The translations under genes were made by a program, and so were the position numbers. 5,728 nt of DNA. Source: a virus. Lineage: Duplodnaviria > Heunggongvirae > Uroviricota > Caudoviricetes. Positions 3,214-4,210 of the stretch are shown one piece after another (position 1 is the stretch's first letter; every line of letters starts with the position of its first letter). The stretch covers positions 1-5,728 of the IMG/VR virus record IMGVR_UViG_2609459830_000005, one strand, 5' to 3'. Under the pieces are notes generated by a model. It searched no databases. It worked only from the letters and a program-made list of their open reading frames with translations, and was not told the origin of the DNA.

Positions 3214-4134
3214 TTAGTAGTGATGCAGTGAAGGAGGTAATTCTTTGTTCTTAAGTCTTAGCCATGCAGAAAGATTCGTTGGTCCGTCTGGCTCATTAAT
3301 ATCAATATCTCGCGTGTGATTGATTAAAACGTCTCTCGCCATTCCAATAACATACGAGAACTCATGACCGTAGTCGTAGCATCTGCAGGAATAGTTCGAT
3401 TGAATTTGCTTTAGCGCCGGATACAGTTCGCGGAATAATGCCTGTGAGCGGTTAGCATAATCCCATAACCATACAAGGCTGTTTGCTTCTTTTGCAGAAA
3501 GCTCGTTGGTTTTCTTCTCTTGTTTGCCAATGAACTCACCTTCAAGCGGAACGCGAGCAGCAAGTGACAGTGCTTCGGTAAACTGCTCCTCACTAATTTC
3601 TTTGTACGAACATCCAAAATGGGATTTCAGTGACGACCACATGGTGATCATCGCCTTCGCCTGTTTTTCTTTTGGCAGAGACTGACCGCGACTCATGACG
3701 AGTTGTTTAATGGCTTCCTGCTGTTCAGTGGTGATTTTCCCCAGCAATGCCTTTTTAGCTTTGCGCGGGTTAATCACATGGCCTTTAGTCCAGTACTCGT
3801 AGAGCACATCGTCACACTCTTCCTGATACTGGATTACCTTCTCGCGGATTTCAGGGCGGACTTTGTTAGGACTGATGGTTTGGAGCCAACCATTCAGTTT
3901 ACGCAAAGCAAGGCAAATCATGGTCTGCATACCGCCAACTGAAGGTATTGCGATTTCCACAATACCTTTAGCAAATCTTTGTTTTAACTTTGTAAACTGT
4001 GAAGCCCAATCCATACCCATTCCCTCAACGATAGGTTTCATTGGGGTGTACGGTTCGCCGTTGTGATTGACGACATAAAGCTCTGCGCCGTGGAATGGCA
4101 CGTTGATAGTAGATACCGCTGTTGCTATACTCAT
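3214..4134 (-). CDS. ant: Phage antirepressor, AntA-like N-terminal domain (Ant family)
   Basis: 306-aa ORF beginning MSIATAVSTINVPFHGAELYVVNHNGEPYTPMKPIVEGMGMDWASQFTKLKQ...RPEIREKVIQYQEECDDVLYEYW, a pattern recalled as typical of the AntA antirepressor N-terminal domain. Start ATG at 4134 has AAGGAA upstream with a ~9 nt spacer. The track's upstream start at 4188 is a GTG with no better ribosome-binding site. Confidence 0.88.
   Translation of the reverse strand: MSIATAVSTINVPFHGAELYVVNHNGEPYTPMKPIVEGMGMDWASQFTKLKQRFAKGIVEIAIPSVGGMQTMICLALRKLNGWLQTISPNKVRPEIREKVIQYQEECDDVLYEYWTKGHVINPRKAKKALLGKITTEQQEAIKQLVMSRGQSLPKEKQAKAMITMWSSLKSHFGCSYKEISEEQFTEALSLAARVPLEGEFIGKQEKKTNELSAKEANSLVWLWDYANRSQALFRELYPALKQIQSNYSCRCYDYGHEFSYVIGMARDVLINHTRDIDINEPDGPTNLSAWLRLKNKELPPSLHHY
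4103..4131 (+). promoter_or_regulatory. Sigma70-like promoter on the + strand (TTGATA-17 bp-TATACT) inside the first codons of ant, pointing antisense to ant
   Basis: -35 TTGATA at 4103-4108, 17-bp spacer, -10 TATACT at 4126-4131; each hexamer is 5/6 to consensus. The predicted start near 4138 is just upstream, on the other strand, of the ant ATG (4132-4134). Confidence 0.45.
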
Positions 4135-4137
4135 TTC

Positions 4138-4210
4138 GTTAGTTCCTTGGAAGTTACTGACATAGAAGCCCGATTTGTGTTCGCGCACTGTCGGGCTTCG
4201 CTATTTTTAT
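4138..4210 (+). ncRNA. Candidate sar-like antisense small RNA (~70 nt) complementary to the ant ribosome-binding site and the arc-ant intergenic region
   Basis: It would run from the promoter at 4103-4131 to a + strand hairpin plus U-tract at 4165-4210, covering the complement of the ant Shine-Dalgarno (4143-4148). This matches, in position and size, the sar antisense RNA of the P22 immI region (established knowledge). Boundaries are predicted, not measured. Confidence 0.4.
4165..4210 (+). terminator. Hairpin plus T-tract in the arc-ant intergenic region (candidate terminator of the antisense RNA; also a structure within the arc-ant mRNA)
   Basis: Perfect 9-bp inverted repeat gaagcccga (4165-4173) / tcgggcttc (4191-4199) with a 17-nt loop that has an internal gtg/cac pairing. 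It is followed on the + strand by GCTATTTTTAT (4200-4210). Confidence 0.4.

Follow-up and report, generated by a model that had tools for sequence, protein, structure and literature searches.

We analyzed a 5,728-nucleotide stretch of viral DNA (the window: positions 1 to 5,728 of IMG/VR record IMGVR_UViG_2609459830_000005, Caudoviricetes) in which the antirepressor gene ant follows a gene for an Arc-like repressor on the minus strand. The interval that covers the start of ant and the arc-ant spacer, 4103..4210, very probably encodes on the plus strand a cis-antisense small RNA that is homologous to sar of phage P22 and guards ant. This reading draws on the sequence elements of the interval, on their homology with P22, and on the conservation of both the promoter and a strand-specific structure across related loci. 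The element is a new, divergent member of the sar kind, and a specialist would expect such an RNA in an immI module. Its parts are as follows.

4103..4108, plus strand: -35 element TTGATA, within ant codons 9-11 (ACT ATC AAC)
4123..4131, plus strand: extended -10 element TGcTATACT (-10 TATACT, 4126-4131), over ant codons 2-4 (AGT ATA GCA)
4138..4208, plus strand: predicted sar-like antisense RNA of about 70 nt, with the start taken from the P22 spacing and the 3' end from the U-tract
4138..4161, plus strand: 5' hairpin with a GUUAGU/ACUGAC stem, presenting the anti-Shine-Dalgarno (anti-SD) UCCUU (4144-4148)
4148-4144, minus strand: Shine-Dalgarno (SD) of ant, AAGGA, 9 nt before the ATG; the antisense target, read from the sequence
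4165..4199, plus strand: terminator hairpin GAAGCCCGAU...GUCGGGCUUC, from folding and from covariation of helix 2
4202..4210, plus strand: U-tract UAUUUUUAU, after a GC spacer; it contains the arc-like stop codon (4209-4207, minus strand)

An earlier note on this DNA had placed a near-consensus sigma70 promoter, TTGATA-17-TATACT, on the plus strand within the first codons of ant, facing a hairpin plus U-tract about 70 nt downstream in the arc-ant spacer, and had predicted an RNA complementary to the ant SD. The promoter was found as placed. It has a 17-nt spacer, matches the consensus at 10 of 12 positions, and carries the TGn of an extended -10 in addition; no other site of at least 10/12 was present on either strand of the window. 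The -10 TATACT is itself ant codons 2 and 3 (AGT ATA) read from the opposite strand. Hairpin and U-tract were likewise where the note had them, at 4165-4199 and 4202-4210. The predicted start, G4138, is six bases past the -10, and the predicted RNA is located between the ant ATG (4134) and the arc-like stop codon, on the opposite strand to both, where it spans -4 to about -74 of the ant leader. The note had also described the RNA as overlapping the ant translation-initiation region, which stood in part: the SD falls inside the predicted 5' hairpin and is covered, but the AUG is not, since a start at G4138 corresponds to position -4.

Folding of the predicted RNA in silico, a check that the earlier note had proposed, gave a stable structure of two hairpins. 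The 73 nt of 4138-4210 folded at -28.3 kcal/mol (z = -4.9), which was equaled by none of 200 shuffles. The terminator hairpin has a lower stem of 10 bp and an upper stem of 4 bp, with a ΔG of about -22 kcal/mol. It was not listed by a standard terminator scan of the window because of its internal loop; a purpose-written terminator scan picked it up.

In the P22 record, sar is a 70-nt RNA opposite ant that runs from the base before the ant ATG (-1) to the arc stop codon, with Psar within the opening codons of ant and the 3' hairpin of sar as its terminator. The layout in the window agrees feature by feature with the annotated Psar, sar, and terminator, in line with the earlier note's comparison. 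Common to both are the TTGCTATACT block, which holds the -10 with its TGn and is identical in Psar, as well as GTT.GT, TTACTGAC, and GAAGCCC...GGGCUUC. Both have TGn with TATACT, 6 nt from the -10 to a G start, a length of about 70 nt, a 5' hairpin with the anti-SD, and a terminator tail over the arc stop codon, and in both the neighbors are ant, an Arc-like gene, and a divergent gene for an Mnt-like ribbon-helix-helix (RHH) protein. The two RNAs are only about 65% identical, with two matching hairpins of similar energies and z-scores. They differ in the upper terminator stem and in the hairpin-1 loop. The -35 of the window, TTGATA, is near consensus, whereas that of P22 is GTGTTA, and the U-tract is better in the window (UAUUUUU) than in P22 (CUUU). 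The window RNA begins at -4 rather than -1 because the window ant lacks codon 2. In P22, sar blocks translation by pairing with the ant ribosome-binding site (RBS) between arc and ant (PMC12197685; PMC7968456), and it has been reported to act in trans by pairing (PMC12197685).

The earlier note had judged that promoter, terminator, and target would hardly fall in register by chance. We estimated the background in 2.34 Mb of related phage DNA, on both strands, and the counts bore this judgment out. Distinct promoter-like sites that reached 10/12 or more numbered 196. Of those not classed as sar, only 10 were followed at 45-100 nt by a hairpin and T-tract. One of these 10 also carried TGn, and that one was itself sar-like. 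The arrangement is no chance coincidence.

Related loci show how the promoter has been kept. We retrieved 80 loci through Ant protein similarity alone, and the -10 TTGCTA[T/A/C]ACT was present in 78 of them. Where the Ant N-termini have diverged, the -10 lies over AGT ATA, AGT TTA, AGT GTA, or ATT GTA, always followed by GCA. Since the Ile, Leu, or Val codon is NTA in every case, the -10 keeps its initial T-A and its final T through the amino acid changes, and the GCA codon keeps the TGn. In the window type, whose ant is one codon short, three extra leader bases hold the -10 at 6 nt from hairpin 1. We take the promoter to be under selection at the nucleotide level and not to be a by-product of coding. 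Conservation of the -35 (TTGATA or TTGATT) says less because it lies within conserved T-I-N codons.

The structure is as widespread as the promoter. A promoter, two hairpins, and a terminator stood ahead of ant in 78 of the 80 loci; the two exceptions were a locus whose terminator is disrupted and a locus at whose very first bases the search pattern had matched. One natural disruption of a sar terminator is seen in locus L071 (about 1400-1494), where the promoter and hairpin 1 are kept and the terminator hairpin is broken by unrelated sequence. Adding loci from a pattern search, a biased source, to the Ant-retrieved ones gave 85 distinct variants, and all 85 adopt the two-hairpin fold, with the anti-SD in the loop of the 5' hairpin and a terminator hairpin after it. 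Aligned with MAFFT, 36 variants came out with the 3' arm of hairpin 1 out of register, and from that alignment RNAalifold recovered only the terminator. We used an alignment guided by a covariance model (CM) instead. In this alignment of 102 related elements, 90% of cells were paired, and changes on both sides of a pair occurred in 101 cells, compared with 25.9 in shuffles (0 of 500 reached 101) and 8-19 when the partners were slid. Covariation was seen in helix 1 as well as in helix 2.

The same alignment, which includes P22 and excludes the window, gave a covariance model that we call R2. It matched the window at 4135-4212 on the plus strand with 46.7 bits and an E-value, roughly calibrated, of about 3.6e-8; the next match had E = 0.67. 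R2 also matched sar-like elements in CUS-3, TL-2011b, YYZ-2008, Salmonella phage vB_SosS_Oslo, and E. coli prophages at 59-79 bits. The Oslo hairpin 1 is identical to that of the window, and none of these elements is annotated as an RNA in the records examined. The Rfam sar model, RF00262, aligned end to end with 4138-4202 on the plus strand, but its 15.6 bits fall short of the gathering score of 43; P22, as a control, scored 97.8 bits. At the gathering threshold, RF00262 recognized only variants with a P22-type terminator (L073, L014, CUS-3, L007, and, marginally, TL-2011b). It missed 11 loci: the window type, L006, L046, L060, L203 (YYZ-2008), L205 (Oslo), L206, L093, L168, L125, and L030. 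The model is narrow. The window element has the structure and position of a sar RNA and is detected by the broader model that includes P22, and it scores below the curated threshold of Rfam.

By homology with P22, we infer that the transcript is made, that it has the predicted ends, and that it represses ant by pairing. A sigma-70 promoter with an extended -10 in the first ant codons would fire in the direction opposite to ant. Transcription would begin at about G4138 and end at the hairpin and U-tract, at about 4205-4208, yielding an RNA of about 70 nt that matches the arc-ant intercistronic leader as a perfect complement, with the anti-SD in its 5' hairpin. Pairing with the arc-ant mRNA would cover the ant RBS and block Ant translation, a posttranscriptional lock on top of the control that the Arc-like and Mnt-like repressors would exert on transcription. 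The Pant-like and Psar-like promoters converge, and transcriptional interference between them may play a part.

We weighed three other explanations. The hairpins could belong to the leader of the arc-ant mRNA, as a processing or stability element or an attenuator, with the plus-strand promoter match a by-product of ant coding. The helices of any cis-antisense RNA are mirrored in its target, and for that reason we examined strand asymmetries. The ant leader does fold on the minus strand as well, less convincingly, at -25.8 kcal/mol (z = -2.3), and the promoter hexamers do sit in coding sequence. However, the sar strand was more stable than its complement in 83 of the 85 variants (means of -28.6 and -20.2 kcal/mol), because the G·U pairs of the sar strand, 4.4 per fold on average, become A·C mismatches on the complement. 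On the sar strand, 54 of 85 variants had a T-rich tail (at least 5 T in 8) after the hairpin; on the opposite strand, the count was 0 of 85. A leader structure also does not account for a -10 whose TA...T and TGn outlast amino acid changes via NTA codons at a constant 6-nt spacing, and the homologous P22 element is an experimentally characterized RNA. We find this explanation scarcely credible. Two other roles for the hairpin were rejected: it lies upstream of mnt on that gene's strand and so is not an mnt terminator, and with no T-tract on the minus strand, it is not a terminator of the arc-ant transcript.

A second alternative accepts the promoter and gives it a different main effect, transcriptional interference, either by collision with or occlusion of arc-ant polymerases or by antisense read-through from a leaky terminator through arc toward mnt. 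The Psar-like promoter and the candidate promoter of arc-ant are convergent and about 270 bp apart, and the U-tract is imperfect, with its GC spacer and A interruption. Liao et al. in 1987 reportedly described interference between Pant and Psar in P22. Interference would require neither a two-hairpin structure that covaries nor an anti-SD that is always in the 5' hairpin, and the terminator hairpins are strong (about -22 kcal/mol); P22 sar, moreover, is reported to pair in trans. As the main function, interference is improbable. The third alternative is that the element is an intact-looking relic without function, its tail genes lost and its immI module no longer expressed or selected. The prophage appears to be tail-defective because an open reading frame (ORF) at 4889-5635 (minus strand) joins the N-terminus of a Phage_HK97_TLTM tape-measure protein (residues 1-122) to the C-terminus of tail protein L (121-246), and about 2.5 kb (H, M, and L) that is present in related E. 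coli prophages is missing here. The alignment to an intact prophage stops at 5260. Against decay of the module, its counterpart at the matching site in E. coli CFSAN018748, where the lambda-type tail operon is intact and the annotation lists no RNA, is 99.8% identical; all three reading frames (ant, arc-like, and mnt-like) are open; and the RNA and its promoter are undegraded. An antirepressor encoded by a defective prophage is still able to act on other prophages in trans. We regard a functionless relic as highly improbable.

Several points nevertheless weigh against a sar-like RNA. The RNA is known here from the sequence, and its transcript and ends are predicted. Conservation of the promoter could in part reflect constraint on the protein, especially at the -35 in the T-I-N codons. 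A GC lies between the stem and the U-tract, and the tract is broken by an A; because of both, the efficiency of termination is uncertain. RF00262 gave the window element E = 0.62 even in a 111-nt search, and a whole-window Rfam scan at E ≤10 gave no sar match, only matches at chance level. The R2 E-values are rough owing to the calibration, and the alignment used for covariation was fitted to the model and has many rows that are close relatives. Finally, in a tail-defective prophage, the module may no longer matter to the phage life cycle.

The sar-like element sits in the tail end of a lambda-type prophage, which fills the window and is read on the minus strand. Between tail genes K and L, a module is inserted that consists of ant, the Arc-like gene, and a divergent Mnt-like gene. 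The features of the tail region and the module are as follows.

First in the order J, I, K, module, L: tail gene J, lambda-type
1847-2524, minus strand: tail gene I, lambda-type
Up to about 3160, minus strand: tail gene K, with JAB and NlpC/P60 domains
3214..4134, minus strand: ant antirepressor gene, 306 amino acids (aa); Pfam P22_AR_N and P22_AR_C, PHROG anti-repressor Ant
4207..4374, minus strand: Arc-like RHH gene, 55 aa; Pfam Arc, PHROG Arc-like repressor
4441-4413, minus strand: Pant-like promoter-like site TTGACT-17-GACAAT, from a consensus scan only
4432-4460, plus strand: Pmnt-like promoter-like site TTGAAG-17-CATAAT, from a consensus scan only
4392-4406 and 4442-4456: operator-like repeats CCTCACTGTGGGGCA and CCCCACCGTGGGGCA, respectively, imperfect palindromes of 15 nt, 50 bp apart
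4498..4872, plus strand: mnt-like gene, 124 aa, with an Arc/RHH N-terminal domain; Pfam Arc 30.6 bits, and PHROGs

Ant matched the two Pfam domains with E-values of 9e-45 (P22_AR_N) and 4e-29 (P22_AR_C) and is 56% identical to P22 Ant. Its start is the ATG at 4134-4132 (minus strand), and PGAP calls this same 306-aa coding sequence (CDS) in E. coli CFSAN018748. A 324-aa ORF with a GTG start is also present in the window (3214-4188); it represents a longer ant start of a type that is probably miscalled. The Arc-like protein scored 19.1 bits with Pfam Arc, slightly under the cut-off of 20.4, and 1.3e-5 with the PHROG Arc-like repressor. It is 33% identical to P22 Arc over 40 aa (pairwise E = 2e-5), and RefSeq labels the 55-aa ORF hypothetical. 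The mnt-like gene is divergent from arc-ant and is annotated in E. coli as an Arc family DNA-binding protein; at 124 aa, its product is longer than that of the P22 mnt CDS in the record (252 nt). The -35 hexamers of the Pant-like and Pmnt-like sites overlap, the pair spanning 4413..4460, and the CCTCACTGTGGGGCA and CCCCACCGTGGGGCA repeats, which flank or overlap this pair, are candidate Arc/Mnt-type operators. In P22, Pant and Pmnt overlap fully, whereas the candidate operators and promoters of the window are arranged differently.

Judged from these features, the module is probably an immI-type "ant moron" placed between lambda-type L and K. Such immI modules have been described as "ant morons" for P22-like phages (PMC2629481). 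The P22 module itself lies between genes 16 and 9. In the Shiga toxin (Stx) phage YYZ-2008 of O157:H7, ant is likewise between K and L. Terminator-like hairpins with T-tracts on the minus strand bracket the window module at 3196-3177 and 4880-4863. The former comes after ant, just ahead of K; the latter comes after L, where it extends over the 3' end of the mnt-like gene. Brackets of this kind are typical of a moron within a late operon. One of the chance-level Rfam matches, at 4855-4919, is actually a terminator. Unannotated sar-like elements occupy the same L/K site in YYZ-2008 (1139-1214) and in CFSAN018748 (L202; 6076-6153). The annotated ant CDS of Oslo, 163-1137, spans its sar-like element (1055-1132) and overlaps the arc-like CDS; its start, upstream of the likely ATG, is probably miscalled. 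We found nothing specific in the open-access literature on sar-like RNAs in lambda-tail ant morons or O157 prophages.

The combination of hairpin 1 and terminator found in the window occurred in only a few IMG/VR contigs and E. coli genomes, and the exact window-type hairpin-1 pattern had 0 matches in a collection of one genome per species. Among species-representative genomes, CM-confirmed elements were restricted to Enterobacterales. A relaxed family pattern also hit contigs from outside this order, but all of them failed the CM and were taken as chance matches. In two E. coli P22-like prophages (L206 and L207), positions 2501-2577 hold an RNA that is 85-88% identical to window 4138-4210; the gene after it encodes a "P22AR C-terminal domain" protein of 209-212 aa whose N-terminal region differs. 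The 88%-identical RNA has an A-U to G-C compensatory change and a TGcTACAAT -10 at the right distance. The BLAST matches in both prophages cover the RNA segment 4138-4210 only, and because they are limited in this way, they show a cassette that would recombine at its ends, its RNA segment apparently moving independently of the flanks.

Some loci carry more than one element. Each of the Xenorhabdus contigs L218, L223, L224, L238, L241, and L248 has two or three. In Xenorhabdus beddingii (L218), they lie at 2295-2372, 2921-3003, and 3985-4063, ahead of an Ant-like gene, a 49-aa ant remnant, and a 254-aa gene, with arc-like and mnt-like RHH genes beside each. The 254-aa gene looks KilA-N/Bro-like, as judged by eye. 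Besides the element at ant, second sar-like matches were seen in the viral contigs L113 (450-522, plus strand) and L201 (13137-13215, plus strand). That of L113 adjoins a 59-aa Arc-like ORF with no ant alongside, and it may be a remnant module.

Other temperate phages have comparable RNAs. Like sar, OOP of phage lambda is a constitutive cis-antisense RNA of small size (77 nt) with an intrinsic terminator that down-regulates a lysis-lysogeny regulator. Unlike sar, OOP lies across the 3' end of cII and works by decay that depends on RNase III rather than by RBS masking, and it has no sequence or family relation to sar. The c4 RNA of P1/P7 is a small RNA that restrains antirepressor synthesis in temperate phages, and the CA RNA of N15 resembles sar in the same respect. 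In contrast to sar, c4 and CA are cut out of the sense transcript, upstream of ant, and the sites on which they act are nearby; they do not arise from a convergent promoter inside ant, and their sequences are unrelated.

We compared the RBS-covering 5' domains of eight representative variants. Cognate duplexes had energies of -45 to -51 kcal/mol, and noncognate duplexes were mostly at -5 to -28 kcal/mol, with the exception of window/Oslo (-42.8 kcal/mol), which have hairpin 1 in common. It is possible, and we put it forward tentatively, that sar comprises many mutually orthogonal specificity classes in a family larger than Rfam records, carried in a mobile mnt-arc-sar cassette that recombines at the ends of the RNA. 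The cargos that follow the RNA suggest, on this proposal, that the cassette has been joined to different ones: P22_AR_N Ant, P22AR_C-only, and KilA-N-like proteins. If this is true, co-resident prophages, Stx phages included, would each gate their own antirepressor without cross talk, a situation comparable to that of plasmid antisense RNAs, which define incompatibility groups.

As the expected third regulator of an immI module, a sar-type RNA in the window adds little new biology in itself. Its relatives outside the Rfam model, that of the O157:H7 Stx phage YYZ-2008 among them, stay unannotated. Control of the antirepressor decides the induction of resident lambdoid prophages, including Stx phages, and an unannotated posttranscriptional brake on ant would be relevant to the modeling of induction or of prophage cross talk. 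The family also offers a natural series of covarying antisense/target pairs that may be used to test rules of antisense specificity.

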